Notes: generated from the sequence alone by a model not told the origin. 64,000 nt of DNA from Isurus oxyrinchus (GCA_026770705.1 JANJGN010000071.1:1054001-1118000), one strand, 5' to 3'. Numbered from the stretch's first letter, positions 20,901 to 62,603 are shown. A program made the numbers and translations.

Positions 20901-21044
20901 CATAGGTGTTTTCTTTCATAAGACATGTGAGAGAGGGTTAAACCCACTGACCCACGACTGACACTAACGAGGCTGCAGAATATTTTAACCCTATCAGTGC
21001 CAGTAAATGATGTGAGGATGCCTTCTGTTTCCATTTCTCTGTAG

Positions 21045-32300: not shown

Positions 32301-32326
32301 GTGAGTTACTGCAAACTTCAACATCA

Positions 32327-32373
<47 letters not shown>

Positions 32374-34287: not shown

Positions 34288-34316
34288 GTGAGTTAACGCA
34301 AACTTCAACATCACTC

Positions 34317-34358
<42 letters not shown>

Positions 34359-35311: not shown

Positions 35312-35357
35312 GTGAGTTAATGCCAACTCAACATCTCTCTCATACACGCACACACAC

Positions 35358-35393
<36 letters not shown>

Positions 35394-36122: not shown

Positions 36123-36404
36123 ATGCTCCACAGAATCTCTCAATTAATTCTCTTGATATGATTAATGCTTCATCGATCAATATAATTGAGGGGAATTCTG
36201 CAGTGATAATCTGCTCTGTCGAGAGCTTCCCAGCTTCTAACCTGACGTGGGGACATCTTAATGTCCCAATGAACAGAACAAGTTCCAACAATGAGCTGTG
36301 GTTGGTGATTCCTCACGTTACATCCAGGGACACTGGAGACTATCTGTGTGTGGCAGAGAATGAACATGGAGCAGTGGAGAGATTCATAACCATCACTGTG
36401 GAAT
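36123..36404 (+). CDS. Gene A C2 repeat exon 5 (chimeric)
   Basis: 282 nt; 5' part like exon 8, 3' part like exon 2. Confidence 0.88.
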
Positions 36405-37151
36405 GTGAGTGCACACAGACTTCAACATCACACACACAAACACACACACACATGCAAAAACACTCATGTGTAGACACAAACATGCACGCTTACACACAAA
36501 CATACGTTCAAACACATACACAGAAACACACACAAACTCAACTCACACATACAATCATTCATGCGCACACGTAGACACACGTATACACACACACTCCCTC
36601 AAGCACAGATGTACACACGCAGACCCACATACACACGCGTGCCCACACATGCGCAGACAGACACGCGCATACACACAAATACAAACTCACTTGTGCAGAA
36701 ATACACACACACACACAAGTGTGAGATCCCTCTCCTCTCTCAGTGCTGCACTGGAGTTTTGGTATCAGCTCTGATTCTGTGTTGAAGGAAGGTAAACTCC
36801 AGATCAGCAAGACCCTGAATTGGATGAGCAACTTCCTGAACGGAGAATTGTAGATTTACTCCTCAGTGCTCCATCGATCAAATACAATTCACGGGCTTTC
36901 AATCCCTTGGGGGCATCTTGAGAGTGTTAAAGGATGTTTGTTTCATTCTAGGTGGACAGCAACTCTGTTGGTGGGAGAATGCAACTGCAGTGTGACAGTT
37001 TACATAGGAAGTGCCCATTATAAATGTGACAGTATTCTTTCCTGCGGGAAGGTACCTGGAAATGCATTCCAACATCAGATACAGAGAGATGATGCATGGA
37101 GTCTTGCTGTGCACTGTGCTTGCTCACAGTAAAATCTTTATTTGTTTTTAG

Positions 37152-37433
37152 ATGCTCCACAGAATCTCTCAATTACTTCTCTTGATATGATTAATGCTTC
37201 GTCGATCAATATAATTGAGGGGAATTCTGCAGTGATAATCTGCTCTGTCGAGAGCTTCCCAGCTTCTAACCTGACGTGGCGACATCTTAATGTCCCAATG
37301 AACAGAACCAGTTCCAACAATGAGCTGTGGTTAGTGATTCCTCACGTTACATCCAGGGACACTGGAGACTATCAGTGTGTGGCAGAGAATGAACATGGAG
37401 CAGTGGAGGGGTTCATAACCATCACTGTGGAAT
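37152..37433 (+). CDS. Gene A C2 repeat exon 6
   Basis: 282 nt; same protein sequence as exon 3. Confidence 0.88.
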
Positions 37434-38175
37434 GTGAGTTAACGCAAACTTCAACATCACTCACACGCACACAGACACACACACACACACACACACACAG
37501 ACACATGTAGGCACACACATGCATAATTATACACACACAGTCATACACGTACAAACACATACACAGGAAAATACACACCCATCTCAAACACACACATATT
37601 CATGCCCACACATAGACACACACATGCACATACTCTCACTCATGGACAGACGTAGACACACAGACACACGCGCATGCACACACACAGATACATGTGTGCA
37701 TACACACACAAACACACTCACATGTGCAGTAACACAAACACACACATACACACGCGTGAGTTCTCAGTGCTGCACTGGAGTCTTAGTATGAGTTCCGATT
37801 CTGTGTTGAAGGAAGGTAAACTCCAGATCAACAAGACCCTGAATTGGATGAGCAACCTCCTGAACAGAGAATGGTAGACTTACCCCTCAGTGCTCCATCG
37901 ATCAAATACAATTCATTGCCTATCAAGCCCTTGGGGACATCCTGAGGATGTGAAAGCAAACTTCTTTCATTCTAGATGGGCAACACCTCTGCTGGTGGGA
38001 GAATGCAATTGCAGTGTGACAGTTTACATAGGCAGTGTCAATTATAAATGTGCCATAAGACCTTATCCTGAGGGAAGTTACCTGGAAATGCATTCAGACA
38101 TCAGACACAGAGACATGATGCATGGCGTCTTGTGCACTATGTTGCTCACGTTAAAATCTTTATATATATATATAG

Positions 38176-38457
38176 ATGCATCATTGAATCTCTCAATTAA
38201 TTCTCTTGATATGATTAACGCTTCATCAATCAATATAATTGAGGGGAATTCTGCAGTGATAATCTGCTCTGTCGAGAGCTTCCCAGCTTCTAACCTGACG
38301 TGGCGACATCTTAATGTCCCAATGAACAGAACAGGTTCCAACAATGAGCTGTGGTTGGTGATTCCTCACGTTACATCCAGGGACACTGGAGACTATCAGT
38401 GTGTGGCAGAGAATGAACATGGAGCAGTGGAGGGGTTCATAACCATCACTGTGGAAC
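38176..38457 (+). CDS. Gene A C2 repeat exon 7 (acceptor preceded by a (TA)n run)
   Basis: 282 nt; near-copy of exon 4. Confidence 0.8.
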
Positions 38458-38503
38458 GTGAGTTAATGCCAACTCAACATCTCTCTCATACACGCACACA
38501 CAC

Positions 38504-38539
<36 letters not shown>

Positions 38540-39270
38540 GCACACACACACACACACACTCATGTGTAGACACATACGTGCACATTTACACACACAGTCA
38601 TACACGTGCAAAAACAGACACAGAAACACACATACACTCAACTCACACGCACACACTCACACAGGCACACATATAGACATACACATGCACTCACGTTCAC
38701 TCATGCACAGACGTATACACAAAGACACACTCACATATGCGCAAACACATACACACACGCACACACAGACACATGCGTGCATACACACACAAACACACTC
38801 ACATGTGCAGAAACACAAACACACACATACACACGCATGAGGTCCCTCTCCTTTCTCAGGGCTGCACTGGAGTCTTGGTATCAGCTCCGATTCTGTGTTG
38901 AAGGAAGGTAAACTCCAGATCAACAAGACCCTGAATTGGATGGAGCAACCTCCTGAACAGAGAATTGTAGACTTACCCCTCAGAGCTCCATCGATCAAAT
39001 ACAATTCATTGCCTATCAAGCCCTTGGCAAAATCCTGAGGATGTGCAAGGAAGTTTCTTTCATTCTAGGTGAACAGCACCTCTACTGGTGGGAGAATGTA
39101 ACTGTAGTTTGACTGTTTACATAGGCAGTGCCCATTATAAATTTGACAGTGGAAGTTATATGGAGGGAAGGTATCTGGAAATGCATACAGACATCAGATA
39201 CAGAGAGATGATGTATGGAGTCTTGCTGTGCATGCTGCTTGCTCACATTAAAAACTTTATTTGTTTTTAG

Positions 39271-39552
39271 ATGCTCCACAGAATCTCTCAATTAATTCTC
39301 TTGATATGATTAATGCTTCATCGATCAATATAATTGAGGGGAATTCTGCAGTGATAATCTGCTCTGTCGAGAGCTTCCCAGCTTCTAACCTGACGTGGGG
39401 ACATCTTAATGTCCCAATGAACAGAACAAGTTCCAACAATGAGCTGTGGTTGGTGATTCCTCACGTTACATCCAGGGACACTGGAGACTATCAGTGTGTG
39501 GCAGAGAATGAACATGGAGCAGCGGAGGGATTCATAACCATCACTGTGGAAC
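39271..39552 (+). CDS. Gene A C2 repeat exon 8
   Basis: 282 nt, phase 1-1. Confidence 0.9.
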
Positions 39553-40529
39553 GTGAGTTAACACAAGCTTCAACATTACTCTCACATATACACAGACACA
39601 CTCATACACACACACACACACACACACGTGCACACAAACAAGCATTCATGTGCAATCCCACATGTCCACAGGTGTGTACGCCTGCATGCTCACACACAGA
39701 AGGAAACATACACAGAATCACACGTGTGCTTGCTCACACACACACACACAGACATGTGTGAGTTGTCTGTTCTCCCTGTGCTGCACTGGAGCGTTGCTCC
39801 AGATTCTGCTCTGAAACACTGACGACATCAGCTGAACAAGACCCTGTATTGGACGAGCAGCCCCCTGCACAGAGAATTGTAGGTTTATCACCCCATTATT
39901 CTAAAGCAATTCCTCCACTGTCAAATCTCCATAAATATCCTGATGATGTGAAAGACATTTTCTTTTCTTCTAGCCCGACAGTGTCTCCTCTGGTGGAAGG
40001 CTGTAATTACAGCGTGACAGTTTACATATCCACATGCAGCAAGAGCTGAACAACATTCAGCTTGGGCTGAGACAATTAATGCATCACAAGTACCAGGCAG
40101 TGATCATGTCCAACAAGAGAGAATCTAACCATCTCCCCTTGATGTTCAGTGAGTTTACTATCACAGAATCCCCCACAATCAACATCCTGGGGGATGTTAA
40201 CCAAACAACTAACTGGACCGGCCATAAATACTGTGGCTACAGGAGCCGGTCAGAGGCTGGGAATTCTGTGGGGGTGAAAAACTCACCACCACCTCCTCAA
40301 GGGCAATTAGGGATGGGTAATAAATGCTGGTCTAGATAGATACAGCCACTTCCCATGAATGTACAAAAAGAAAAACACCGGCAGTGACCATTATAAAAGT
40401 TGACATAGGAACTTAAAACAGGAAAGAACTCTTGAAATGCACATAGACACCAAATAGAGAGAGATGTATCATGGAGTCTTGCTGTGCACTGTGTTTGCTC
40501 ACAATGAAACCACCTTTATTTGTATCTAG

Positions 40530-40811
40530 ATGCACCACGGAACCCATCAATTACTTCTCTTGATATGATTAACGCTTCATCGATCAATATAATTGAGGGG
40601 AATTCTGCAGTGATAATCTGCTCTGTCGAGAGCTTCCCAGCTTCTAACCTGACGTGGCGACATCTTAATGTCCCAATGAACAGAACAAGTTCCAACAATG
40701 AGCTGTGGTTGGTGATTCCTCACGTTACATCCAGGGACACTGGAGACTATCAGTGTGTGGCAGAGAATGAACATGGAGCAGTGGAGGGGTTCATAACCAT
40801 CACTGTGGAAC
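40530..40811 (+). CDS. Gene A C2 repeat exon 9
   Basis: 282 nt, phase 1-1. Confidence 0.9.
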
Positions 40812-41568
40812 GTGAGTTACTGCAAACTTCAACTTCACTCACACACACACACACACACACATACACACACACACACACGTGTAGGCACACACATGCACAC
40901 TTATACACACACAGTCATACACGTGCAAACACATACAGAGGAATATATATACACAACTCACACACACACACACATTCATGCCCACACATAGACACACACA
41001 TGCACATTCACTCACTCTTGGACAGACATTGACACACAGACATGCGTGCATGCGCACACACAGATACATGTGTGCATACACACACAAGCACACTCACTTC
41101 TGCAGAAACACAAACACTCACACACTCTCACACATACACAAATATGAGTTCCCTCTCCCCTCTCAGGGTGCACTGGAGTCTCGGTATCAGCTCTGATTCT
41201 GTGTTGAACGAAGGTAAACTCCAGATCAACAAGTCCCTGAACTGGAGGAGCAACTTTCTGAACAGAGAATGGTAGATTTACCCCTCAGTGCTCCATCAAT
41301 CAAACATTGCCTGTCAAGCCCTTGGCGAAATCCTGAGAATATGAAAGCAAGCTTCTTTCATTCTAGAGTGACAACACCTCTACTGGTGGGAGAATGCAAT
41401 TGCAGTGTGACAGTTTACATAGGCAGTGTCCATTAAAAATGTGGCATAAGACCTTATCTTGAGGGAAGTTACCTGAAAATGCATTCAGACATCAGATACA
41501 GAGACATGATGCATGGAGTCTTGCTGTGCACTATGTTTGCTCACGTTAAAATCTTTATATGTTTTTAG

Positions 41569-41850
41569 ATGCATCACGGAATCTCTCAATCAATTCTCTT
41601 GATATGATTAACGCTTCATCGATCAATATGATTGAGGGGAATTCTGCAGTGATAATCTGCTCTGTCAAGAGCTTCCCAGCTTCTAACCTGACGTGGCGAC
41701 ATCTTAATATCCCAATGAACAGAACAAATTCCAACAATGAGCTGTGGTTGGTGATTCCTCACGTTACATCCAGGGACACTGGAGACTATCAGTGTGTGGC
41801 AGAGAATGAACATGGAGCAGTGGAGGGGTCCATAACCATCACTGTGGAAC
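41569..41850 (+). CDS. Gene A C2 repeat exon 10
   Basis: 282 nt, phase 1-1. Confidence 0.9.
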
Positions 41851-42515
41851 GTGAGTTACTGCAAACTTCAACATCACTCACACACACACACATACACACA
41901 CAGACACACACACACACACACGCACACACACACACACGCACACACATACACATAAACAGGTGCACGTAAACATGCGTTCATATTTAATCCCATGTCTGCA
42001 CAGGTGTGCACGCCTGTATGCTCACACACAGAAGCATACATACAGAATCACACGTGTGCTTGCTCACACACACACACAGACATGTGTGCGTTGTCTGTTC
42101 TCCCTGTGCTGCACTGGAGTGTTGCTGCAGATTCTGCTCTGAAACACTGACGACATCAGCTGAACAAGACCCTGTATTGGACGAGCAGCCCCCTGCACAG
42201 AGAATTGTAGGTTTATCACTCAATACCCCATTATTCTAAAGCAATTCCTCCACTGTCAAATCCCTGTGAACATCCTGATGATGTGAAAGACATTTTCTTT
42301 TCTTCTAGCCTGACAGTGTCTCCTCTGGTGGAAGGCTGTAATTACAGCGTGACAGTTTACATATCCACACGCAGCAAGAGCTGAGCAACACTCAGCTTGG
42401 GCTGAGAAATGACAATTAATGTTCATGCCACACAAGTACCAGGGAGAGCTGTTCCTTGTATTGACCCTTGGGATTGTTTATCCCAACCTGATAGGGCAGA
42501 GGGAGCCCAGGTTGT

Positions 42516-42582
42516 GACTATCAGTGTGTGGCAGAGAATGAACATGGAGCAGTGGAGGGGTTCATAACCATCACTGTGGAAT
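42516..42582 (+). pseudogene. 3' fragment of an additional C2 repeat exon
   Basis: DYQCVAENEHGAVEGFITITVE plus donor gtgagt; 5' part missing. Confidence 0.8.
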
Positions 42583-42596
42583 GTGAGTGTGGAGAT

Positions 42597-42850
42597 ACAT
42601 TTGTTTGTTTGTTGTCTCCGTGGTCTCCGTGGAGCCATTGGGATCGTGTTGTTTTTAATCCAGTTTTCTTCAATCCTCGCTCAGTCCACGTTATCCACAC
42701 ATCCAATTTTTCCTCTCCCTTTCTGTTTTTGCTCTCAGTTTCTCCTTCAATGGTTGTCAGGACAAGGCTGTCAGATCTTCGTTTCCAATCTCCATACTTG
42801 ACGACCTTTCTCTCTCTAACTGTCCTGAACAACCCTTTTAATTGCTGAAC
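42597..42850 (-). mobile_element. RTE-clade LINE 3' fragment
   Basis: LFRTVRERKVVKYGDWKRRSDSLVLTTIEGETESKNRKG resembles the RTE C-terminus (KRKLKYFGH...IEGKVEGKRRRGRP); (CAAA)n-like tail. Confidence 0.6.
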
Positions 42851-43401
42851 TTCTCATTCTTTAATTGATAAATATTATATATAAATGTTACATGGATTAC
42901 TTTGAAATGCAATACCTGTATTCATAAATTGCTTAGAAATGACTAAACATTCAACAGCCAATGAAGCATTATCGAAGTGAGCTCACTGTTGTAAAGGAGG
43001 AAACACAGGTACTGATTTGTACACAGCAAGATCCCACAAACCACCGTGTCTTAATGACCTGATAGGCGATTATTTCAATGAGGTTGGTTGTTTAATGTGT
43101 AGAGAGACTACATACCCTTTAGGGAGGGAAGCATGTCTCGATGTGGATGTGACTCCAGTCTCAGACACCAACATGGTTAACTCACACCTGCCCTGTGAAC
43201 TGGTCTCCCAGTTTGGGACAAACCAGTGGATCAGGAGGAAGACCCCCCACCACCTTCTCAAGGGGAAACTAGGGATGGACAATAAATGTCAGCATTGCCC
43301 GAGAATGAGTATTTAAACACTGAGTGAGTGTATCGCTTCTCGAGATACATCGGAGCATCATTGTAAACCTGTAGTGCAGTAATTAATGGCTGTTTTTACA
43401 G

Positions 43402-43498
43402 GTAGAGACTCCAGTAAAGGGACAGTAGGATTGTTCACAGCTGGGATCATGTTGAGTGTTTTCCTGGCTGGAATCTTCATCTTCATCTGTGTGAGAAA
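43402..43498 (+). CDS. Gene A transmembrane exon (RDSSKGTVGLFTAGIMLSVFLAGIFIFICVRK)
   Basis: Acceptor ttttacag; uncharged hydrophobic segment of about 22 aa; phase 1-2; donor gtaagt. Confidence 0.88.
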
Positions 43499-44192
43499 GT
43501 AAGTCTGAAGATTTAACTTGATTTTAATATAAACATTTGCTTCAATGTTCTTTCCTGAAGTCGGTGATTGTTTCCCTTGTGTTAAGCGCCAGATGCCTCT
43601 CCCTAACTGGTCTCTTTATCCGTTATGATCCAGAGAGTGTTTTTCATTGCCCGTTATCCAGATGAATAATAATCAGTTGCTGTGATCTGGAAGGTGCTGC
43701 CTGAAAGGGCGCTGGAAGCAGATTCAATAGGAACTTTCAAAAGGGGAATTGGATAAATACTTGAAGGGGGAACATTTGAAGGGCTATGGGGGGAAGAGCA
43801 GGGGTGGAGGGGGGGGTCAAAATATGGCGTGTTATTATAATGATATTATACCTTAGGCTTATTTACTGTATAAGACAGAAAACACCAATCACTCATAGGG
43901 GATTTGGTGAGAATGTTAATGATTTGTTTATCAAGAGTCGGCTCGAGAACAGTTATACATACGAAGAAAGCTTGAAGGCATCAGAGCTGTGAGTGTGTGT
44001 TCTGCTCAAAGCAAATGTCAAACTGAGATTGGATCACATGACACACTTCCATTATAGTGATGTCACGCTGATACCCCTTATTGGAACTAGAGACAGTCCA
44101 GTCGTTGGTGTAAGGTTACAGTGGGCTCTGTGTCTGTGCTGCACTGACTCTCTGCTATATGATAACCACAGTGTGATATTGTGTTATTGCAG

Positions 44193-44274
44193 GAGAAAGA
44201 CAGCAATGGAGGAGAGAGGTTCAGGGACCAATTACATTGCATTGACCCTCAGGTCACTCTCTGTGAAGCACCAG
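44193..44274 (+). CDS. Gene A cytoplasmic exon 1 (RKTAMEERGSGTNYIALTLRSLSVKHQ)
   Basis: Phase 2-0, in frame with the TM and terminal exons. Confidence 0.85.
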
Positions 44275-44487
44275 GTACAGGAACTGTTTACACTCACTCC
44301 AAAGCTTCAACCTCAGTGTGTACACAACACGTATACCAGATTCTCAGCCGGGTTACACACAGATATCGCCCTGTGAAGTCAGCAATGGCTCAGTGGTCAG
44401 CACTGTCTCTCGCTCCCTGCCTCTGTCTCCCTCCATCACTCGCTCTTTGACCAGAAACCTGAACACAATAATGACAAGGCACCTGAT

Positions 44488-45375
44488 GTCAGTACTGAGG
44501 GAGTGCTGCACTGTCAGAGGGTCAGTAGTGAGGGAGTGCTGCACTGTCGGAGTGTCAGTACTGAGGGAGTGCTGCACTGTCGGAGGGTCAGTACTGAGGG
44601 TGTGTTGCACTGTCAGAGGATCAGTACTGAGGGAGTGCTGCACTGTTGGAGGGTCAGTACTGAGGGAGTGTTGCACTGTCAGAGTGCCAGTACTAAGGGA
44701 GTGTTGCACTGTCAGAGGGTCAGTACTAAGGGAGTGCGGCACTGTCGGAGGGTCAGTACTGAGGGAGTGTTGCACTGTCAGAGGGTCAGTACTGAGGGAG
44801 TGCTGCACTGTCGGAGGGTCAGTACTGAGGGAGTGCTGCACTGTCAGAGGGTCAGTTACTGAGGGAGTGCTGGACAGTCGGTGGGTCAGTAATGAGGGAG
44901 TGCTGCACTGTCTGATGGTCAGTACTGATGGTGTGCTGGACGTTTGGAGTATCAGCACTGAGGCAGTGCTGCACTGTCAGAGGGTCAGTACTGAGGGAGT
45001 GCTGGACTGTCAGAGGGTCAGTACTGAGGGAGTGCTGCACTGTCAGAGGGTCAGTACTGAGGTAGTGCTGCACTGTCAAAGGGTCAGTACTGAGGGAGTA
45101 CTGCACTGTCGGAGGGTCTGTAGTGAGGGAGTGCTGCACTGTCAGAGGGTCAGTACTGAGGGAGTGCTGCACTGTCAGAGGATCAGTATTGAGGGAGTGC
45201 TGCACTGTCAGAGGGTCAGTATTGAGGGAGTGCCGCACTGTCAGAAGGTCAGTACTGAGGGAGTGCTGCACTGTCAGAGGGTCAGTGCTGAGGGAGTGCT
45301 GCACTGTCAGAGGGTCAGTTGTGAGGGAGTGCTGCACTGTCAGAGGGTCAGTAGTGAGGGAGTGCTGCACTGTTG
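44488..45375 (+). repeat. 33-bp SINE-derived minisatellite (~27 copies)
   Basis: Tandem cagtactgagggagtgctgcactgtcagagggt. Confidence 0.9.
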
Positions 45376-45562
45376 CAGTGCGATAGAGATTAAATTATTA
45401 AGAGAGAGAGAAAGCGAGATAGAAAGATGACAGAGAAAGAGAGTGAAAAAAAGGCTTAAACCCACTGAGACACGACTGACCCTAACCCGGCTGCAGAATA
45501 ATTTAACCCTATCAGTGCCAGTAAATGATGTGAGGATGTCTTCTGTTTCCATTTCTCTGTAG

Positions 45563-45811
45563 GGTAAACAGAACGTGCTGATTACTGAGCCCCAGAACAC
45601 AACCAGAGACACAACTAGTGAGGGGGAGACCCCAGCTCCCCGGGATCTCTCTGAAGGTCCAGTGGGAGGCGATGTTGGACATGGGAACCCCGACAATACC
45701 GACGACCTTCTCTACGCCAACATCAACTTTTCAAAGCTGCCCAGCGGTGACAGGACTGTGCACAGGAGCGAGGACACGGAATACACACAGATCAGGTTCC
45801 AGAAAAACTGA
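45563..45811 (+). CDS. Gene A terminal cytoplasmic exon with ITIM (LLYANI) and ITSM (TEYTQI)
   Basis: Acceptor ctctgtag, phase 0; DDLLYANINF...EDTEYTQIRFQKN*, the tail layout of CD33-related Siglecs. Confidence 0.9.
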   Translation, partial: GKQNVLITEPQNTTRDTTSEGETPAPRDLSEGPVGGDVGHGNPDNTDDLLYANINFSKLPSGDRTVHRSEDTEYTQIRFQKN

Positions 45812-45999: not shown

Positions 46000-48070
46000 A
46001 CAAGGTGAGGTGAGAGTGACTGACCTTAACATTAAGGCTGCATTTGACCGAGTGTGGCCTCTGGGAGCCCGAGCATAACTGGAGTCATTGTGAATCAGGG
46101 GTGGTACGAAAGTATAATAATTTGCATAATATTTTCCTGGTTTGTTTTAAAGTAGGTTTATGGGTGTGAGTGTAGATGGGTCTGTCTGTGTAGTTTAATT
46201 ACATCTGGAGTCAGGTAGACTGCAAGTTTGAGATTATCAAAAGAAGCTAGATGTAGAAATGTACTTGAAATGCTAATGAGAACACATGGAGGCTGTGTTA
46301 GCATGTAAGGTGTGAAGGGGTTGTTTAGATTTCAAAGGGATGTTGGTCTGTTTAGGACAAGCCAATAAGCAAAGCTAAGGAGTTTTTTTTTAATTTTACC
46401 CAAACTTCATTGACAATATTGGCAACATGAAAGTTTATATTATGGGAAAGATACAGTTCCAAAGAATTTACACATCAAAGAGAGAGAAACATGTATAAAG
46501 GAGAATGAAAGGCTATGTTGGGGGCCATGTAAGATCTAACAGGAGTGTGTGAAACAGGCTTGAAGAAGCCTCCAGGCATTTGTGCATAAGTCTGTTATGT
46601 TCAGTAAATAAAGTTGGAGAAATCCATTTAGAATTCCACTGTCAAGTGTGTGCTGTGTTAACTCGCTGGGTTTGTTTTTAATCTAAAATTGTATTTTGGA
46701 CTGTTGCCTTAAACGGGCTCTGTAACTGGGAGTCAGGTTAATTAGGAATTTGAGAATTTATTTTAGTTGTAACTAACCGTGGTATTATGTCTGTGCTTGA
46801 AATCTTTTATTTTGTTAATAAATATCCTAATCAAATTTTTAAAATGTCTAAAGGTTGTGGTCAACTCATTACTCCAGAATTCAGTGCACGCATCTTGTAA
46901 TAAATACAAATTGCAAACTATTGTGATAGCATGACCAATTTTCCCTTGTGGATTTGGAGCACCAAGCACACATCATCTGCCATGTCATGTCACAGGGAAA
47001 ACTCTCCACTCGTTGGATTCATACCAAGTACAAAGGAAGGTGGTTGTGGTTGTTGGAGGTCAGTCATCTCAGTTCCAGGATATCACTGCAGGAGTTGCTC
47101 AGTGTAGTGTCCTAGGCCCAACCATCTTCAGCTGCTTCATCAATGACATTCATTCTATCAGATGGTCAGAATTATGGATGGTCACTGATGATTGCACAAC
47201 GTTCAACATCATTCATGACTCATCAGATGCTGAAGCAGTCCATGTCCAAATGCAGCAAGACCTGGACAATATCCAGGCTTGGCCTGACAAGTGGCAAGTA
47301 ACATTCATGCCACACAAGTGCCAGGCAATGACCATCTCCAACCAGAGAGAATATATCCATCTCCCCTTAATGTCCAATAGCATCACCATTGCTGAATCCC
47401 CCACTATCAACACTCTGGGGGTTATCATTGACTAGAAACTGAACTGGACTAGCCATATAAAAACTGTGACTATAAGAGCAGGCCAGAGCCTGGGAATCCT
47501 GTGGTGAGTAACTCGCCTACTGACTCCCCAAAGCCTGTCCACCAACCTCAAGGCACAGGTCAGGAGTGTGATGGAATACTCTCCACCTGTCTAGGTGAGT
47601 GCAGCTCTAACAACACTCAAGAAGCTCGACATCGTCCAGGACAAAGCAGCCCCGCTTGATTTGCACCCCATCCACAAACATTCTCTCCCTCCACAACTGA
47701 CGCACAGTGGCAGCAGTGTGTGTACCATCTACAAGATGCAACACAGGGAGTCACCAAGCCTCCTTAGACAGCACCTTCCAAACACATGATCACTACCATC
47801 TCGAAGGACAAGGGCAGCAGAAACATGGGAACACCACCACCTGGAAGTTCCCCTCCAAGTCACTCACCATCCTGACTTGGAAATATATCACCGTTCCTTC
47901 ACTGTCGCTGGGTCAGAATCCTGCAACTCCCTCCCAAACAGTTCTGTGGGTGTACATACACCACAGGGACTGCAGCAGCTCAAGAAGACAGCTCACCCCC
48001 ATATTCTCAAGGACAATTAGGGATGGGCAATAAATTCTGGCCTAGCCAGTGTCAGTGAATGAATACAAAA
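46000..48070 (+). mobile_element. CR1-like LINE 3' half, interrupted by an LTR
   Basis: IKAAFDRVW...GQSSQFQDITAGVAQCSVLGPTIFSCFIND...QQDLDNIQAW; 3' tail ggacaattagggatgggcaataaa. Confidence 0.85.
46102..46994 (+). mobile_element. Solo LTR nested in the LINE
   Basis: TG...CA termini, flanking gggg/ggga near-duplication, AATAAA at 46607 and 46817; reverse-complement similarity to 19732-20489. Confidence 0.7.
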
Positions 48071-52023: not shown

Positions 52024-52025
52024 CA

Positions 52026-52090
52026 CTATCAGTGTGTGGCAGAGAATGAACGTGGAGCAGTGGAGGGATTTATAACCATCTCTGTAGAAC
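52026..52090 (+). pseudogene. Gene C: 3' fragment of a C2 exon fused to the duplicated upstream region
   Basis: YQCVAENERGAVEGFITISVE plus donor gtgagt. Confidence 0.8.
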
Positions 52091-52124
52091 GTGAGTTACA
52101 CAGAATTGAACATTCTCTTGTTGT

Positions 52125-53160
52125 TAGCTCATGGGATGTGGGCATTGTTGACAAGGCCAGAAATTATTGCCCATTTGTAACTGCCCCTTGAGGAGGTGGT
52201 GGTGAGTTGCCTTCTTTAACCACTGCAGTCCATGTGGTGTAGGCACACCCACAGTGCTGTTAGGGAGGGAGTTCCAGGATTTTGACCCAGCGACAGTGAA
52301 GGAACGGCCGATAAAGTTCCAAGTCCAGGGCAGACCACCACCTCATGTTCACCTCCAAATCACAAACCACACTGACTTGGAACTGTCCTGGTGGAAGAGG
52401 TTAAGGGTTTGGAAAGTGCTGTCGAAGGAGCCTAGGTGAGTTGCTGCAGTGCATCTTGTAGATGGTGCACACTGCTGCCATTGTGTGCCAGTGGTGGAGG
52501 GTATGAATGTTTATGCTGGTGGATGGGCTGTCGATCAAACAAGCTGCTCCTGGATGGTGTCGAGCTTCTTGAGTGTTGTTGGAGCCGCACTCATCCAGCC
52601 AAGTGGAGATTATTCCATCACACTCCTGACTTCTGCCTTGTCGATGGTGGACAGGCTTTGGGGAGTCAGGAGGTGAGTTACTCACCACAGAGTACCCAGC
52701 CTCTGACCCGCTCTTAGCCACATTATTTCCTGTTGCCAGGTGATTGCCAGGGCCAACAGCCTTTGCTGTATTCAGTATCATCAGCTGATTCCTGATGTCA
52801 CGTGGAGTCAATCGAATTGTCTGAAAGCTGACATCTGTGATGCTGGGACCCTCTGGAGGAGGCCGAGATGGAGCATCCACTCAGCACTTCTGGCTGAACA
52901 TGGTTGCCAATGCTTCAGCCTTGTCGTTTGCACTGATGTGCTGAGCTCCCCCATCATTAAGGATGGGGATATTTGTGGAACATCCTCCTCCTGTTAGATC
53001 TTTAATTGTCCATCACCATTCATGACTGGATGTGGCAGGACTGCAGAGCTTAGATCTGACCCGTTGGTTGAGGGATCGCTTTGCTCTGTCTATAGCATGT
53101 TGTTTCCGCTGTTTGGCGTGTATGTAGTCCTGTGTGTCACCTCAGCAGCTTGGCACCTCT
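52125..53160 (-). mobile_element. CR1-like LINE remnant
   Basis: AVCTIYKMHCSNSPRLLRQHFPNP; same family as 46995-48070. Confidence 0.8.
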
Positions 53161-53351
53161 GTTATATGTGAATCCTCCTTATAGAAACCTGCATGTACAT
53201 GGATATTATCAATAAATATTACATAGATAAATGTTATTTGTATAGACCTTTCATGCATAGACAATATCACTTCACAAGTTCAGAATTACTACATGTACAT
53301 AGGGAACCATTCTCAAACTGTACCGGAGTCATTCATTGGCTGATTTTACAG

Positions 53352-53448
53352 GGCGAGATTCCAATGAATGGAAAGCAGGATTGCTTGGAGCTGGAATCTG
53401 TTTGAGTGTTGGACTGAGTGGATTCTTCATCTTCAAGTGTGTGAGAAA
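53352..53448 (+). pseudogene. Gene C transmembrane exon (RDSNEWKAGLLGAGICLSVGLSGFFIFKCVRK)
   Basis: 97 nt, phase 1-2, paralogue of 43402-43498, canonical splice sites. Confidence 0.8.
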
Positions 53449-53724
53449 GTAAGTGTGAAGGTTTAATTGGTTGTTTTTGAAAATGTTTTCTTCAACCTTC
53501 GCTCCTTATAGAAAAAACTTGCATTTCTATAGCACCTTTTACAATCCAAAACCCTTCACAGCCCCTGAAGAGTTTTGATGTTCAATCACTATTGAACACC
53601 TCATCCTACACTCCCTGTTTGACAACTCAGTCCTGTAACTGGCAGTTTTGACCCGGACCATAAAATACCCTGTGACCCCTTGAGGATGTGAAAGGTGCTA
53701 TATAAATGAAAACCTTTCTTTCGT

Positions 53725-54172
53725 TAGTGCATGCAATCTCATTCCATTTTCCATGTTTCATTCACTCTCTCTTATCTCCACTAATGCTGGCCTTCTCATT
53801 CTCTCTCTCATTCACTCTCTCTCCAATCTCCACTAATGCCCTCCTTCTCATTCTCTCTCTCATTCACTCTCTCTCCAATCTCCACTAATGCTCTCCTTCT
53901 CATTATGTCTCTCATTCACTTTCTCTCCAATCTCCACTAATGCTCTCCTTCTCATTCTCTCTCTCATTCACTCTCTCTCTTATCTCCACTAATTCACTCC
54001 TTCACATTCTTTCCATCATTCACTCTCTCTCCAATCTCCACTAACGCTCTATTTCTCATTCTCTCTCTCATTCACTCTCTCTCCTATCTCCACTAATGCT
54101 CTCCTTCTCATTCTCTCTCTCATTCACTCTCTCTCCAATCTCCACTAATGCTCTCCTTCTCATTCTCTCTCT
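53725..54172. repeat. ~50-bp CT-rich minisatellite
   Basis: Unit ctccactaatgctctccttctcattctctctctcattcactctctctccaat. Confidence 0.9.
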
Positions 54173-54399
54173 CGTCCTCTTACACGTTGTTCAGTCTCTC
54201 ACATTTTTAAGGAGCGCTGAGCTACATCTGCTCCTTCAGAAGATCCACCTCAACACCTGGAGTGAGCAGAGAATTGCAACTCGCTCAACGACTGCTCAGC
54301 TTTACACAGGAATCACGTCACAGAGTCAGGACAAAAAGGGTTAACAGTTTTCTTTCAACACAACACTAAGGCCCTACGTTTCAATGAAAGGGTTTTCAC

Positions 54400-54715
54400 A
54401 ATTGTTCCCCAATTCCTGATTTTGTCTCACAGAGACACATCAACCCTTTCTCATTAAATACACAGAGGGAGCAGCACAGGAAGAGGTCATTCAGCCCAAG
54501 CAGAGCGTGTGGGCAGTTCCTCCCCAGGCGAGCAGTCGGACAGGTCCTGGGTAAGTAACGGAACGATTGGAACTCACTTCCATGACCAACACCGTCCTTT
54601 GTTGATGTTGTGACTTTATAAAGACAGATTCCAATGATTGATGCCTTTGAAATATTTCTACTGATTATTGAGATCTGGGTGTGAGGCTCAAGTCTGTTGT
54701 ACAGAACATCTTTCT
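54400..54715 (+). repeat. Duplicated copy of the gene A promoter/exon 1 and start of intron 1
   Basis: Matches 25440-25755; donor at 54550; ETS site altered (aattcctgat). Confidence 0.8.
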
Positions 54716-55061
54716 GGTTAAATTATGCAGACAGGTTACACACAGTCTACAATTATATTCACTCGGGCCTAGAAGATTAAGGAGTGATCTAATTGAGGGG
54801 TTCAAACTGATTAAACACTCGATAGGGTCGATAGAGAGAAGCTATTCCCTCGGGTGGGGGTGGGTGGTGGGGGTCGGGTGGAGTCCAGAACAAGGGGGCC
54901 GGAACTTCAGATTGGAGCCAGGCCGTTCAGGGGTGATGTCAGGAAGCACTTCTTCACACAAAGGGGAGTGGAAATCTGGAACTCTCTCCCCAATAATCAA
55001 ACCCAACACCGAATACACATCATGTTGATTGTCACTCTGTCCATTTCCATCTCTATTACAG

Positions 55062-55166
55062 AAGAGAGGCGAGGGGAAAGCAGGAATCAAATCGAACCAC
55101 CGTGTTGATGAATATCGAGGTCCTGTTTATGAAAACTGTGAGCGTGGTTGGGCTTTGAGGAATCAG
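55062..55166 (+). pseudogene. Gene C cytoplasmic exon (KRGEGKAGIKSNHRVDEYRGPVYENCERGWALRNQ)
   Basis: Acceptor ctattacag, donor CAG|gtgagt, 105 nt, phase 0-0. Confidence 0.7.
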
Positions 55167-55302
55167 GTGAGTCACACACCACAGGATCACCAGCCTCTCA
55201 GCTGCTCCAGTAGCCTGGTTATTGATATGGCTGCTCCAGTCCTGTATCTGCAATGTTTTATACAGTCACTCCCAAACCCAACCAAACTCACACCCAACAC
55301 CA

Positions 55303-55652
55303 TTCAGAATCAATAATCAAACCCCGTTCAGTATCAATAATCAAACCCCGTTCAGTATCAATAATCAAACCCCATTCAGTATCAATAATCAAACCCCGTT
55401 CAATATCAATAAGCAAACCCCGTTCAGTATCAATAATCAAACCCCGATCAGTATCAATAAACAAACCCCATTCTGTATCAATAATCAAACCCCGCTCAGA
55501 ATCAATAATCAAACCCCGTTCAGTATCAATAATCAAACCCCGTTCAGAATCAATAATCAAATCCCGTTCAGAATCAATAATCAAACCCCGTTCAGAATCA
55601 ATAATCAAACCCCGTTCAGTATCAATAATCAAACCCTGTTCAGTATCAATAA
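55303..55652. repeat. 24-bp minisatellite
   Basis: Unit atcaataatcaaaccccgttcagt, about 14 copies. Confidence 0.95.
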
Positions 55653-55751
55653 TTAATGTATCCATTGTGGGTGGAATTTTCGATTTGGATCAATAATTCT
55701 AAACACTGATCACTCTGATTGTCACTCTGATCATTTCTGTTTCTATTACAG

Positions 55752-55868
55752 AAGAAAGATGAGAAGGATCTGGAAATGAAATCTAACCGCGGAGTCAATC
55801 CTGATACAGATGATGATCTTTACGCAAACTGTGAATTTGCCAAGGATTCTGTTTATGGGAATTTATAA
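55752..55868 (+). pseudogene. Gene C terminal exon (KKDEKDLEMKSNRGVNPDTDDDLYANCEFAKDSVYGNL*)
   Basis: Acceptor ctattacag, phase 0, stop at 55866-55868; acceptor region homologous to that of the preceding exon. Confidence 0.7.
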
Positions 55869-56984
55869 ACTGAGCAAGAATGAGACACACACAGTGTAGG
55901 GAGAATACAGAACGGGAGAATCATTCAAAACTCTAACTTACCTTCCTAATATCCACAGGAACTCACTCCCAGGAAATAGATTTAAACCTCTTGTTACAAT
56001 CTGATGGAATTTCTTCGGAATGATCTATCCAGGATGATTGTCTGTGGGTTTCAATTCGAACATCCTCCTTCAGAATTGTCCCTCCCTGTTGGAAACATCC
56101 TTCTCTCCATTCTGATTGTAAATGTCTTTAGATATCGTTCGATGATGTACCAGGACAGAACGGACAAATTCAATCCCGTGTCCATGATTATGAGTTAATT
56201 TTCATTCTGTTATTCACCTTCCTGTCAGTCAGTGTTTACAGAATATTCATCAGCCAGTGTAGACTTCAGGAAATGCAGGATCGGTGGATAATTGGAGCAG
56301 AGGAGATAGGCAAAATTTACTCAGCATTTTGTAATCAAATGTATTTTTAGATATATATTTGGATTTTACACTTCATCGTTAAACAGCAAAACTAACAGCA
56401 ATCTGGGAAACAGGGAAACAATTTGTTTGGAGATTTGAGAAATTCTCTGCAGCTCAGAGGAGAACAGATGTGCTACAGTGCCACCACTGGTGGGAGGACA
56501 TCATTTCAGCGTGACATGTTTACATTGATGTTGCCAGTGAACATAGGAAATTATGATGTGAAAAATTGGTTGCAGGTTTACCTTCTTCAGAAGTTCATGG
56601 ATGGATGAGACAGCTTTGATAACAGAATGAGATATAGCTGCAATAAACCTCAATTTTAGTCTTTCACACTTGGAGAGTACAATTAGCATCCATTCTGAAG
56701 GCTGAGTGGATGGGTGGACTGTGCGATGTGTTTCAGATCACAGAGACCAACATCCTTGATCCTGGTTCTGCTCTATGTTTGATGACATTCTTGGATAAAA
56801 GATTGGGAAAATAAATAATCCTCCTGCATTGATCTGTAACTGGTCTCTCCATCTGTCAATGTCCTGAGGAGAGAATTGGGTTTGAGGTCCAAAATCAGAT
56901 GCATACTTTGACTGCCCATTGAATAGGAACAGGAGGAGGCCATTCAGCCCCCTCGAACCTGCTACACAGGAACAAGAGAGCACC

Positions 56985-57202: not shown

Positions 57203-58625
57203 TGAGAGGAGGACATTCAGCCCCTCGAGCCTGTTACACAGGAACAGGAGGAGGCCCATTCTGTCCCCTTGAGCCAGTTACACAGGAACAGGAGGAGGCC
57301 CATTCTATCCCTTTGAACCTGTTACACAGGAACAGGAGGAGGCCCATTCTGTCCCCTCGAGCCTGTTACACAGGAACAGGAGGAGGCCCATTCTGTCCCC
57401 TTGAGCCAGTTACACAGGAACAGGAGGAGGCCCATTCACCCTCCTCGAGCCGGTTACACAGGAACAGGAGGAGGCCCATTCTGTCCCCTTGAGCCTGTTA
57501 CACAGGTACAGGAGACCCATTCAGTCTCCACCACCTTGTTACACAGGAACATTAGGGGCTCCATTCAGCCACTCAAGCCTGTTCCACATGAACGGGAACA
57601 AAAACAAAAATAGCTGGAAAAACTCAGCAGGTCTGACAGGATCTGCGGAGAGGAAGACACTTGACGTTTTGGGTCTGTATGACTCTTCATCAGAACTAAG
57701 GGAATCGAGAAATGAGGTGACGTTTTAGCTGGTAGAGGGGGGTGGGACAGGTAGAGCTGGATTGTGGGCCAGTGATAGGTGGAGGCAAAGAAGAGGTTGC
57801 CAAAGATGTGATAGACAAAAGGACAAAGGGGTGTTGACGGTGGTGATATTATCTGAGGAATGTGCTAATGGGGACATTAAGGGTAGAAAGCAGGACGAGC
57901 AAGAGACAGATAGTCCTAGTGGGGGTGGGGTGGGGGAAAGGATTGAAATAGGCTAAAAGGTAGAGATACAACAACAGATGTAAAACATTTAAAAATAATG
58001 GAAATAGGTGGGAAAAGAAAAATATATAAATAAAATAAATATTAAAAATGATCAATGATTGGAAAAGGGAGATTGGAAAGGGGGTGGGGATGGAGGAGAG
58101 AGTTCATGATCTGAAATTGTTGAACTCAATATTCAGTCGGGAAGGCTGTAAAGTGCCAGGTCGGAAGATGAGGTGTTGTTCCTCCAGTTTGTGTTGGGCT
58201 TCACTGGAACAATGCAGCAGGCCAAGGACAGACATGTGGGCATGAGAGCAGGGTGGGGTGTTAAAATGGCAAGCGACAGGGAGGTCTGGGTCATGCTTGT
58301 GGACAGACCGAAGGTGTTCATCAGAGCGATCACCCAGTCTGTGTTTGGTCTGTCCCATGTAGAGGAGACCACATTGGGAGCAGTGAAGGCAGTAGATTAA
58401 ATTGAGGGAAGTGCAAGTGAAATGCTGCTTCCAATGATGCTCCTAATGTACTCGAGCCTGGTACACAGGAACTGGGGAAGGCCAATTCAGCCCCTTTAGC
58501 CTTTTACACAGGAACAGGAGGAGGCCCATTCAGCCCCTCGAGCCTATAACACAGGAACAGGAGGAGGCCCATTCAGCCCACTCAAGCCTGTTACACAGGA
58601 ACAGGAGGAGGCCCATTCAGCCCAA
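57203..58625. repeat. ~42-bp CR1-tail-derived minisatellite (57203-57595, 58450-58625) split by a Penelope element
   Basis: Same unit as 10370-10732. Confidence 0.85.
57596..58432 (-). mobile_element. Penelope-like retroelement 3' end (GIY-YIG endonuclease)
   Basis: GQTKHRLGDRSDEHLRSV...LPVACHFN...KLEEQHLIFRPGTLQPSRLNIEFNNFR. Confidence 0.85.
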
Positions 58626-58759
58626 GCAGAGCGTGTGGGCAGTTCCTGTCCAGGCGAGCAGTCGGACAGGTCCCGGGTAAGTAATGGATCGATTGGAAAT
58701 CACGGGGGAAGTTCTGAGGGCTCCTAATCCATTGTCCTGTCTTCTAAATCAGCACCTTA

Positions 58760-59264: not shown

Positions 59265-59406
59265 CAACTTCCTCATTTTGTCTCACAGAGACACATCAAC
59301 CCTTTCTCATTAAATACACAGAGGGAGCAGCACAGGAAGAGGTCATTCAGCTCAAGCAGAGCGTGTGGGCAGTTCCTCCCCAGGCGAGCAGTCGGACAGG
59401 TCCTGG
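59265..59406 (+). promoter_or_regulatory. Gene D putative promoter and non-coding exon 1
   Basis: Copy of 25445-25588 with an intact ETS site and gtaagt donor. Confidence 0.55.
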
Positions 59407-59815
59407 GTAAGTAACGGAACGATTGGAATTCACTTCCACCACCAACACCGTCCTTTGTTGTTGTTGTGACTTTATAAAGACAGATTCCAATGATTGATGC
59501 CTTTGAAAGATTTTTACTGATAATTGAGATCTGGTGTGAGGCTCAAGTCTGTTATACAGAACATCTTTCTAGCTCAAGGGATGAGGGAAGTGCAGAGACA
59601 TGAGATTTGGGATGCCCTGAGGTAGTGAAAGGTGCTATGGAAATGCAAATCCTTCATTGTTTGTCTTTCTTACAGCCTTGTAACTCTCTGCAGAGCACCT
59701 ATCATCCCACAGAGAATCAAATTATTCTGTGAAGACATTGTCTAAAAGCAGTTCTGATCTCTCGAGAGCATTCGGACAAGAGGTGAGGTCTCATTAACTC
59801 CTTTCTCTTTCACAG

Positions 59816-59894
59816 CTTGAGAGTGAGATGTGGATGGAATATCTGGGAGTGGACGATGATCGGGAAATCTACTTCCTCTTGTCACTTTCCCAAG
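59816..59894 (+). pseudogene. Gene D signal-peptide exon (1-nt deletion relative to gene A)
   Basis: ATG at 59856 to the donor is 39 nt, versus 40 nt in gene A. Confidence 0.75.
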
Positions 59895-60597
59895 GTAATA
59901 TCATCATCAGCTCAGACAGATTTATGTTTAACAGTCTTTGTAAAAGATCATTCTTATCTCTTAATCTCTGTAACCTCCTGCAACTCACCCAAACAACTTC
60001 CCAGATCTCTGTGTTACTCCAATTCCGGCCTCTTGACCATCCCCCGATTCCCATCACTCCAATACTGGCGGCCGGGCCTTCAGCTGCCTGGGGCCTGAGC
60101 TCTGGAATTCACTCCCTAAACCTCGGGGATGGAGGAGATCAGAGGGTTTCATTTTACTGAGAATCACCACGACCACATCACAGCTGCAGTCAGAATAGAC
60201 AGAGAGTCCAGCCCTCACACTTCCTGCACAGTTTCACCATAGCAACCACAATATGGAAATTTAAAAATACTGAAAGTTAAACTGAAGCTCAAACCAGTCA
60301 GTGTAGAGAGATGAGATGTTTACACAGTTTCCCTGTGTATCTTGTAGACACTGTGTTGGATGGAAGACTGGCTTCTCTAAACAGGGTCCTGAGGACCATG
60401 AGCCAATGTAGAATGAACTTGTCCACTCCTGTGTCCAGGATTCTCTTCCCTCCGTTGTGAAACCTTGGGGGGTTCTTTGTGTGTCCTGTAGATGGTCCAC
60501 ACTGCAGCCACAGTGCCCCAGTGATGGAGGGGGTGGATATCAAGTCTAGTGGATCTACAAACCATCCAGAGTTAAATATTGATATTTCTCTCCCCAG

Positions 60598-60973
60598 TTG
60601 GACTGTCACAAGAGTGGAAAGGCGACACTCCACGAGAGGTGACAGCGCAGGAAGGTTCGTGTGTACAGATTCCATGTCATTACAGTTAATCATCACATTT
60701 CGTAGGGAGATCACGTGTCGGAATCTGGTTGAAAGGAATAGATGGGAACCCACAGCCTAAATGGTCTATAGCCTTTCATTCCGAGGGTCACAGTCACAGG
60801 GATCAAAGATTCCGCCATCGTACCCGGCTGTCTGGAGACCTGAAAGATGGCGACTGTTCCCTGATTATAAACAAAATCAGACGGGAAGATGCAGGACCTT
60901 ATTTTTTTCAGAATATAATTTGACAACAGGAATAGATACAACTATTATCCTGTAACCCGGCTTCATGTTTCTG
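60598..60973 (+). pseudogene. Gene D Siglec V-set exon (premature TAA at 60687-60689; +1 T frameshift at ~60902-60908)
   Basis: Clear paralogue of 29520-29885 with two disabling lesions. Confidence 0.88.
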
Positions 60974-61832
60974 GTAAGTGCTGTGTTATAATTACTCAAC
61001 AATTCACATTCAACACTCAATGGGAAATAACACAAACTGTGACGTTTACAAATTAACACAAAACACAGCTTATTATAACACACTGTCTGATTCTCAATAA
61101 CCTGGTGATAGCTTCCAGTTCAGTCCGAAAGTAACCTCTAATACTCACTTTAATATCAATGATGAAAAGCATTAACTGTATTATCAGGTTATCCACTCCC
61201 ATCAATCTCTCCTGTCCTGTTTAAAAGTCTGACGTATCGATAAAAGAAAGATGTGCATTTCTGCAGCGCAATTTACCACCTCAGGAGGATCCAAATCCCT
61301 TCACAGCCAATGAAATTATTCCTGAATTGTCGTCACAGATGTTAAACACAGCAGGCAGTTTGTGCACAGCAAGATCCAACAAACCACAAGGTGATAAATC
61401 ACCCAGATCACTGAGGAAATGAGAAGCCAGTGAACTCAAACCTCTGGTCTGATGAAGAGTCATACGGACTCGAAACGTTAACCCTGTCTTCCTCTCCACT
61501 GATACTGTCAGACCTGCTGAGTCTTTCCAGCAATTTTTGTTTTGGTTTCAGATTTCCAGCATCCGCAGTATTCTGCTTTTAACTCCAATCTCTGGTCTGA
61601 GCCTCTTCTCTCATCCAGTGTTCTCAATTCACATGTCTCGGAGTGAACGTGTATTAAGCTGAGAGACAGAAACACTACTGCCAAAGAGCAAGAAAATCTT
61701 TCCTGATCATTGTAACCTCTCAGTTCTGAGATCATCCTTGTAAAAGTGCTTTCTCTTGTGGGACTGTGGTTTCTATTTGAACTGATGCTTCACGTTATAT
61801 TTGTCTAAAAGGATCCATTCTCTGTCTGTTAG

Positions 61833-62129
61833 ATTTCACAGATAAACCCACGATATTCCCTGCTGAAATTATTGCAGGAAAGCATGTGGATGTAAGCTGC
61901 ACCTTCAACACAACGTGCAATGGAACAGCAGCACCTGTCTTAACCTGGGAAACTCCCACTGACGTACCTGGATCAGTCTCAAACACTGTAACTCAGCATG
62001 GTGTCACTCTGACCTATACTTCTGTTCTGACCCTGATCCCATCACTCAAACACCACGGACACACTCTCAGCTGCAGAGTGAGATATCCATCTGTTTCATC
62101 GGAGCGGACCCTCGTACTAACTGTACAAG
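61833..62129 (+). pseudogene. Gene D domain-2 C2 exon (frame intact)
   Basis: Near-identical to 30744-31040; retains Trp (LTWET). Confidence 0.88.
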
Positions 62130-62455
62130 GTAAGAATGGACACCCTTCATTCTACATCAGCACTCCCTCAGCGCTGACCCTCTGACAGTGCAGCCCGTTC
62201 TCAGTATCCACATTCTCAGACCTCTCAAAGTGCTTCACAGTCGATAGAAGTTAATTGATATTTATTTGATTATTGCTGAATGAAGAGACAAGCTGTCTAA
62301 AGTTTTCATCTCACAGACAGTATTCTCCATGGCAACACCTCCACCTATCAGAGACCACTTGCCAACCAATCAGCACTCTCTTCCCATTAAGTATAAATTG
62401 TTGTTCACTTTCTGTTGGTTATCGTGCGAACGGGCTTCTTGATTCCTGCCCTGAG

Positions 62456-62603
62456 ATCTTAATGTCCCAAAATTCAGAACAAGTTCCAACAATGAGCTGT
62501 GGTTGGTGATTCCTCACGTTACATCCAGGGACATGGACACTATCAATGTGTTCAGAGAATGAACATGGAGCAGTGGAGGGGTTCATAACCATCACTGTGG
62601 AAC
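62456..62603 (+). pseudogene. Gene D degenerate 3' half of a C2 repeat exon
   Basis: NELWLVIPHVTSRD...ENEHGAVEGFITITVE with indels. Confidence 0.8.

Follow-up and report, generated by a model that had tools for sequence, protein, structure and literature searches.

Activating Siglecs are described as coupled to DAP10 or DAP12, with DAP12 engaged through a charged residue of the transmembrane (TM) segment (PMC13233462, PMC7226832). A locus of the shark Isurus oxyrinchus raises the question of whether a Siglec may also signal through tyrosines of its own: within the 64,000-nucleotide stretch of DNA analyzed here (the window), four exons between 53352 and 55868 encode a membrane anchor and a tail with three YxN sites. 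To our preferred reading, based on sequence comparison, we assign a probability of roughly 0.55, namely that sharks and rays share a conserved Siglec class, to which this anchor and tail belong, and that the class would be adaptor-free, Grb2-coupled in the manner of ITT-like receptors, and the activating partner of ITIM Siglecs.

An uncharged anchor and a tail with three YxN sites

Siglec-type genes are clustered in tandem on the + strand of the window, and within this cluster the TM, linker, T1 and T2 exons form a single open frame with canonical splice sites (Table 1). A first-pass annotation had proposed that two paralogous phase-0 exons encode PVYENC and DDDLYANC-EFAKDSV-YGNL-stop, and both were found as claimed, on the + strand, together with the three YxN sites and the YxxC-x7-YxxL spacing. 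The paralogy of T1 and T2 also held up, with acceptor regions 86% identical over 43 nt (E ~2e-9) and a protein-level score of 36, where shuffles averaged 18 (p=0.002). What the annotation had missed was the phase 2-0 exon linking TM to tail, which it had called not visible: this linker exists, is joined by RNA to both the TM exon and T1, and lies within the RefSeq model P0001. A search pattern of acidic-YxN, 6-8 residues, YxN and stop, built post hoc from the window tail itself, matched once in the window and in none of 100 shuffled windows. The TM exon is 78% identical to that of the ITIM gene, and the features expected of a DAP12-coupled type are absent, the TM core being without charge and the tail, of ~100 aa, carrying three tyrosine motifs. 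TM cores of relatives are likewise uncharged, the exception being a Glu in P0047.

Table 1. Features of the YxN cassette and of the upstream ITIM-type gene (window coordinates)
Feature	Coordinates	Strand	Description
Gene A, ITIM-type Siglec	26022-45811	+	Open frame of 1316 aa; upstream of the cassette
Gene A V exon	29520-29885	+	Essential Arg present
Gene A TM exon	43402-43498	+	97 nt
Gene A linker exon	44193-44274	+	Phase 2-0
Gene A terminal exon	45563-45811	+	LLYANI and TEYTQI
C2-set Ig exon remnant, 3′ 66 nt	52025-52090	+	Last C2 exon; from paralogue alignments and a partial C2 match
TM exon	53352-53448	+	Phase 1 to 2, 97 nt; uncharged hydrophobic core; RNA loose end to C2 exon end
Linker exon	54466-54550	+	85 nt, phase 2 to 0, AG/GT, open; RNA joints on both sides; RefSeq P0001
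Tail exon T1	55062-55166	+	Phase 0-0; PVYENC, Tyr at 55128; T2 paralogue
Terminal tail exon T2	55752-55868	+	Phase 0; DDDLYANC-EFAKDSV-YGNL-stop, Tyr at 55821 and 55854

Gene A, upstream of the cassette, consists of a signal peptide, a V domain, 11 C2 exons, TM, linker and terminal exon. Its V domain gave best PDB matches to Siglec-5 (E 1e-15, with the Arg aligned), sialoadhesin and CD33, scores that do not discriminate among Siglec-5, sialoadhesin, CD33 and MAG, and the species-named relatives of the window V exon come from sharks and rays only. The C2 array comprises ten near-identical tandem exons; the C2 exon at 31260-31352 has an internal deletion, and another C2 exon persists as a remnant ahead of the TM exon. 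Elsewhere in the window, 18111-21293 contains two ITIM-type terminal exons and one linker with no TM nearby; the first motif of these ITIM exons reads LLYANP, so that the ITIM +3 residue is gone, while EYAQI is retained, and the white-shark models P0026 and P0044 join such ITIM exons in tandem. Gene B, at 59322-62603, is a Siglec pseudogene: its V exon contains a stop and a frameshift, and a C2 exon is truncated.

The linker sequence itself recurs. The exon at 54466-54550 is 100% identical to 25504-25588, an exon upstream of the gene A signal-peptide exon, and almost all signal-peptide exons seen are preceded, at ~500 nt, by an exon with the linker sequence (the copies in the window are 100% and 99% identical). 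Further copies lie at 59322-59406 and, in part, at 58591-58676. A comparison of 23 upstream with 32 linker copies across ~310 nt gave a divergence of 4.5% between the two groups and of 3.2-3.8% inside them, and the basking-shark models P0037 and P0040 run linker, upstream copy and the next gene together, out of frame. Judging from these alignments, one exon appears to have two roles, as a coding linker and, likely, as part of the 5′ UTR.

Splicing of the tail family

Splice evidence comes from contigs of 4 of 21 listed runs, presumed to be RNA, compared with 53250-56400. The TM-linker joint (53448-54466; contigs of runs X6 and X7, from two studies), the linker-T1 joint (54550-55062; X2 and X7) and the T1-T2 joint (X2 and X7) all have GT..AG borders, and the loose ends of an X1 contig match the C2 exon end ahead of the TM exon. 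Because the contigs carry fixed differences from the window, for example at 55835, they derive from paralogues or other species, and what they demonstrate is splicing of the tail family, not of the window copy. The first-pass idea would have been overturned had these exons never been spliced to a Siglec TM; at the family level the idea withstood this check, with RNA joints running from the C2 end through to T2. As these joints span only that interval, the link from V domain to tail rests on genomic frames and RefSeq models. Among the latter, the white-shark models P0001 (with T1) and P0002 (T1 absent in frame) reproduce the exon order of the window; their V domain is without the essential Arg.

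Contigs of X1 and X2, which come from the same sample, additionally contain a TM-to-T1 joint (53448-55062) that omits the linker. This joint shifts the frame and thus yields a short tail from which all tyrosines are lost; with its stop 8 nt ahead of the last junction, the linker-skipped form is a possible decoy isoform.

State of the window copy

Only 66 nt of a C2 exon lie between the last exon of gene A (ending at 45811) and the TM exon. Intact paralogues align over 52025-53460, and their homology ends upstream of 52025, in the middle of a C2 exon, so the window copy is without signal peptide, V domain and full C2 exons. For comparison we examined 41 loci, namely the window and 20 kb at each of 40 fetched loci, the first 20 of these being the best window-exon matches and the next 20 lying along contig C52. 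The same break behind an ITIM exon recurs at 6 of the 41 (the window, L021, L022, L023, L026 and L032), and as these six are 97-99% identical, they probably record one deletion copied several times recently. The window copy is thus quite probably a non-functional remnant from which everything from the promoter to the C2 exons has been lost, save the 66 nt. The annotation had already suspected a dead copy, and that suspicion survives in the deleted ectodomain, although the cause it gave, an absent linker, was wrong. A search for a rescue acceptor upstream of the C2 remnant was discarded: 10 of 11 in-phase AG sites lead to stops, and at the eleventh, which is open, the pyrimidine tract is poor.

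The sole route by which the window copy could still be used is as an alternative 3′ end of gene A, in which the last C2 exon of that gene (41850) would be joined to 53352 and the ITIM tail swapped for a YxN tail. The phases agree (C2 donor and TM acceptor are both phase 1), gene A is open, all four cassette exons are open with canonical sites, and the arrangement behind an ITIM exon recurs at those six of 41 loci. Yet with six loci 97-99% identical, exon intactness is no sign of selection; poly(A) signals follow gene A at 46607-46899, and no transcript among the contigs compared can be assigned to the window copy. We regard this use of the cassette as rather unlikely, and it concerns the window copy only.

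Conservation of the tandem YxN motif in sharks and rays

Across a set of 120 proteins, 23 match a tandem-tyrosine pattern and reduce to 19 distinct motifs. Because that pattern demanded Asn at the last tyrosine, proteins were re-selected by TM and linker only, blind to the motif, which gave 31 of 120: 21 with a tandem-tyrosine exon, 3 with an ITIM (at borderline scores) and 7 with other ends. All 21 motif-blind tandem tails have Asn+2 at the last tyrosine and a 7-residue spacer. The conserved motif can be written acidic-Y-x-N-C-x7-Y-x-N-V/I/L/M. Both asparagines are retained in 17 of the 19 distinct motifs, and at the first tyrosine Asn+2 occurs in 17, Cys+3 in 16 and Asp or Asn at -2 in all 19; +3 is Cys, Phe or Trp, with Leu or Ile in 0/19. 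At the last tyrosine, +3 is more variable (Val 10, Ile 3, Leu 2, Met 2, Lys 1, Thr 1), so that the Leu of the window YGNL is a minority state (2/19). The spacer is 7 residues long in 18/19, and an acidic residue occupies -3 in 12/19.

These counts recast two first-pass labels. The tail had been called intrinsically ITAM-like, and the window motif does have ITAM spacing and the -3 acid; it carries Cys at the first +3, however, and no relative (0/19) fits the consensus D/ExxYxxL/I-x6-8-YxxL/I, with Asn+2 conserved instead. A canonical ITAM was accordingly set aside for all 19 distinct motifs. SVYGNL had been read as a loose ITIM, which the window sequence does fit, but just 5 of 19 relatives carry a loose form and 1 of 19 a strict one.

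The tail class occurs in the sharks Carcharodon, Cetorhinus, Mustelus, Chiloscyllium, Hemiscyllium, Rhincodon, Stegostoma, Heptranchias and Pristiophorus, and, with a differing TM, in the rays Mobula, Hemitrygon, Rhinoraja, Hypanus and Pristis. Models from Scyliorhinus and Heterodontus contain the TM type, with no complete YxN tail seen in them. As several of these taxa have one terminal exon only, T1 probably arose later, by duplication. RefSeq gives the class automatic names such as 'sialic acid-binding Ig-like lectin 13' or 'MAG-like', and a protein search with the tail region of P0070 returned only 4 proteins, all already in the set.

A large tail family in one genome

Exact matching across the Isurus genome found 124 sites for a 23-nt T2 core, 152 for a 26-nt ITIM exon end and 0 for a control; these numbers leave out variants and may contain uncollapsed alleles and pseudogenes. 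Among the sites listed, YxN-type and ITIM-type tails interleave on both strands over several megabases, and tail-bearing contigs include C52, C71, C121, C150, C189, C323 and C385. The genome holds a very large Siglec cluster with at least 124 YxN-type and at least 152 ITIM-type tail ends, any alleles and pseudogenes included.

Nine of the 41 loci contain clean frames from signal peptide to T2 of 557-680 aa (7 of them within the second 20), and three further loci open once a single exon with a bad donor is skipped. The other 29 are broken, partial or without a signal peptide within 20 kb: eight have T2 alone, six show the truncation seen in the window, and 15 more contain stops, frameshifts or incomplete exons or show no signal peptide within range. 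The essential Arg is present in at least one V domain of all 12 assembled YxN frames. YxN motifs are kept in 41/41 T2 copies and 32/32 T1 copies, although at 98-100% identity among copies this universal retention is weak evidence. V domain followed by C2-set domains, TM and tail are found in one gene in the nine clean frames and in the RefSeq models P0038, P0039, P0070 and P0075, which supports assignment of the tail to a Siglec-type gene family; sialic-acid binding is predicted from the Arg. Taken as a family, the YxN tail is spliced, conserved and amplified, a real Siglec class whose mode of action is most likely that of a multiple ITT/Grb2 module.

The eight loci with T2 alone (L037, L063, L071, L075, L077, L083, L085 and L097) have the 5′ end of a Siglec on the opposite strand ~4-5 kb upstream, and this common neighbour suggests a common inversion breakpoint. 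At L031, L034, L039 and L040 the T1 acceptor is mutated; no V exon, the divergent P0001 kind aside, was found within 14 kb upstream of their C2 exons.

Pairing with ITIM Siglecs and possible origin from the ITIM

The protein set is not limited to YxN tails: it includes proteins with ITIM tails, as well as a class whose tail is short and whose TM segment contains an Arg (ILGIRAVIF). On a tree of 89 V domains, in which ITIM is the default label and takes in some truncated tails, the YxN label changes 18 times, at least 9 of these changes being forced by supported branches; tail labels are nevertheless more clustered than in shuffles. Individual pairs are strikingly close: the V exons of gene A (ITIM) and of locus L069 (YxN) are identical at 362 of 366 nt, and the V domains of Heptranchias P0075 and P0081 at 98% of amino acids. 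Such sharing is what is seen in paired receptors that have exchanged their ectodomains, and the functions of the two classes would be opposite.

The tail itself may descend from an ITIM. Its first YxN motif resembles an ITIM in which the -2 and +3 positions have been swapped, with Asp/Asn and Cys in place of Leu and Ile, and alignment to the gene A ITIM (NPD-TDDDLYANCEFAK vs NPDNTDDLLYANINFSK) scored 53 (shuffle p=2e-4, in a comparison chosen post hoc); hhalign gave a probability of 17% for YxN motif against ITIM. Comparison of the two linker exons gave no signal of homology (p 0.67), nor did that of T1 with the ITIM exon (p 0.63). Given the ITIM-like first motif, and given that each type of tail comes after a TM exon of 97 nt and a linker of phase 2-0, derivation of the YxN tail from an ITIM is plausible.

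Proposed signalling by the tail: Grb2 docking and its alternatives

The adaptor-independent, Grb2-coupled type proposed at first pass remains the best reading that the sequence offers, given the uncharged TM and the conserved Asn+2. With Asn+2 kept and Leu/Ile+3 not, the tail favours Grb2-type docking over a Syk-binding ITAM, and since Grb2-family adaptors are predicted to dock at its YxN tyrosines, of which there are two or three, direct activation is likely. Binding of a sialylated ligand would cluster the receptor, a Src-family kinase would phosphorylate the tyrosines preceded by acidic residues, and Grb2, Grap or Gads would bind pYxN at up to three sites; these adaptors could then engage Vav, PI3K, PLC-gamma and Sos-ERK, as modelled on the ITT-like motif of DNAM-1. 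We infer this route from ligand through Src kinase and Grb2 to Vav, PI3K and PLC-gamma by analogy, and by it the YxN receptor would serve as a counter to microbes that exploit its inhibitory twin. The shark ITIM, however, also has Asn+2 (18/19); inheritance may thus account for YxN without selection for Grb2, and the motif does not by itself imply activation. Nor is the fixed 7-residue spacer with Cys+3 explained by Grb2; a tandem-SH2 partner would fit these better.

Syk binding requires Leu or Ile at +3. Were T2 nonetheless a non-canonical ITAM, its doubly phosphorylated YxxC-x7-YxxV/L, with Cys and Val replacing Leu/Ile, would bind the tandem SH2 domains of Syk or ZAP70, which could be compatible with Grb2 binding as well. 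The constant spacer, the -3 acids and a hydrophobic last +3 in 17/19 speak for such a use, and ITAM-like variants are described in eutherian CEACAMs (PMC2832619, PMC5112662). It is made unlikely by the complete lack of matches (0/19) to the consensus (taken from PMC5112662), by Leu/Ile at the last +3 in only 5/19 and never at the first, by Lys and Thr at the last +3, and by T1, which is a single-tyrosine motif. The tail could also be inhibitory or modulatory, either with SVYGNL as a loose ITIM for SHP-1/2 or with Grb2 as a bridge to SHIP1 or Cbl. Grb2 bridging to SHIP1 or Cbl is known from the ITT-like motif of TIGIT. SxYxxL does agree with [I/V/L/S]xYxx[L/V] (PMC7226832), and the post hoc alignment of the first motif to the gene A ITIM lends this idea some weight; against it stand the scarcity of loose (5/19) and strict (1/19) ITIMs, the first-motif residues at -2 (Asp/Asn, against Leu in the ITIM class) and +3 (Cys, against Ile), the weak hhalign support for ITIM homology, and the separate existence of an ITIM class with common V domains, so that we hold an inhibitory tail to be quite unlikely. 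Little probability falls to a third possibility, in which the motifs are mainly YxxPhi sorting signals for AP-2 and the proteins endocytic or clearance Siglecs that themselves signal little. YxxPhi is matched by the C-terminal YxNV/I/L/M in 17/19, and the same question has been raised for ITAM-like CEACAM tails (PMC2832619), but sorting needs neither Asn+2, nor upstream acidic residues, nor two extra YxNC motifs, all of which are conserved.

One lead concerns the cysteine. Y744 of G-CSFR is a YxxC motif. It recruits STAT3 weakly (PMC2275144); no paper on a YXXC motif was found in the accessible literature, and STAT3 docking at YxxC remains a lead.

Relation to known receptors and meaning for the Siglec family

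The shark genes resemble the paired CD33-related Siglecs (Siglec-5/14, Siglec-11/16) in their V-set domain with essential Arg and C2 domains, and in having near-identical ectodomains on inhibitory and other members within one cluster. Unlike DAP12-paired Siglecs, the YxN members combine an uncharged TM core with a tail that has tyrosines of its own. That tail is reminiscent of ITT-like receptors (DNAM-1/CD226, membrane IgG, CD28 and DAP10), whose acidic-hydrophobic-Tyr-x-Asn arrangement corresponds to the Grb2 SH2 consensus pYxNx (PMC4647266, PMC4263166): the D/E-I-Y-V/M-N motif of DNAM-1 is described as binding Grb2, with Asn+2 essential and a change at +3 tolerated (PMC4647266), and YxN is described as strictly kept in the IgG tail (PMC4263166). 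Those receptors are non-Siglecs with one motif; the shark class has two or three per tail, at a constant distance from one another, and its Cys+3 is conserved. A YxN site with proposed Grb2 binding is also described for catfish LITR (PMC4810170).

The nearest design is that of CEACAM3 and the ITAM or ITAM-like CEACAMs of Xenopus and marsupials, paired receptors in which the activating member signals through its own tail (PMC5112662, PMC2832619); activating CEACAMs of Xenopus and marsupials are reported to have conserved YxN motifs (PMC5112662, PMC2832619). CEACAMs, however, belong to another ectodomain family, and in their ITAMs YxxL is retained and phase-0 introns interrupt the motif. In sharks a single exon encodes the tandem motif, whose first tyrosine is without YxxL/I.

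Beyond cartilaginous fish, Siglec-like proteins that end in YxN-M/V, with no evident ITIM, number several among the best 150 of 5233 profile matches. P0157, P0136, P0144 and P0223, from frog, turtle and arapaima, have an uncharged TM and a C-terminal YxN-M/V. Ten of the profile matches were looked up, two frogs, a turtle and arapaima among them, and the YxN-M/V-ended proteins lack the YxNC-x7 form. The whale-shark genome paper names Siglecs once and, in the portion available, does not mention their tails (PMC8455134), and the accessible literature on shark and fish Siglecs, which includes few subscription journals, held no account of a YxN tail class. A far broader scenario can be imagined, to which we attach low odds: hundreds of Siglec genes in one cartilaginous-fish locus, signalling in three ways (by ITIM, by coupling to an adaptor, or by a self-signalling tandem YxN tail rewired from the ITIM), the YxN mode being an old vertebrate design lost in mammals, to which the similar frog, turtle and bony-fish proteins would attest, and ectodomain-less cassettes flipping genes from inhibitory to activating by alternative splicing.

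The own-tyrosine and probably Grb2-coupled class of the preferred reading is kept in sharks and rays, with more than 100 tail copies in one genome beside ~150 inhibitory tails, and may record the conversion of an inhibitory motif into an activating one. If the reading is right, a Siglec tail with its own tyrosines would be a third signalling mode for the family, and paired Siglecs, with the pressure from microbes that mimic sialic acid, would date back to cartilaginous fish.
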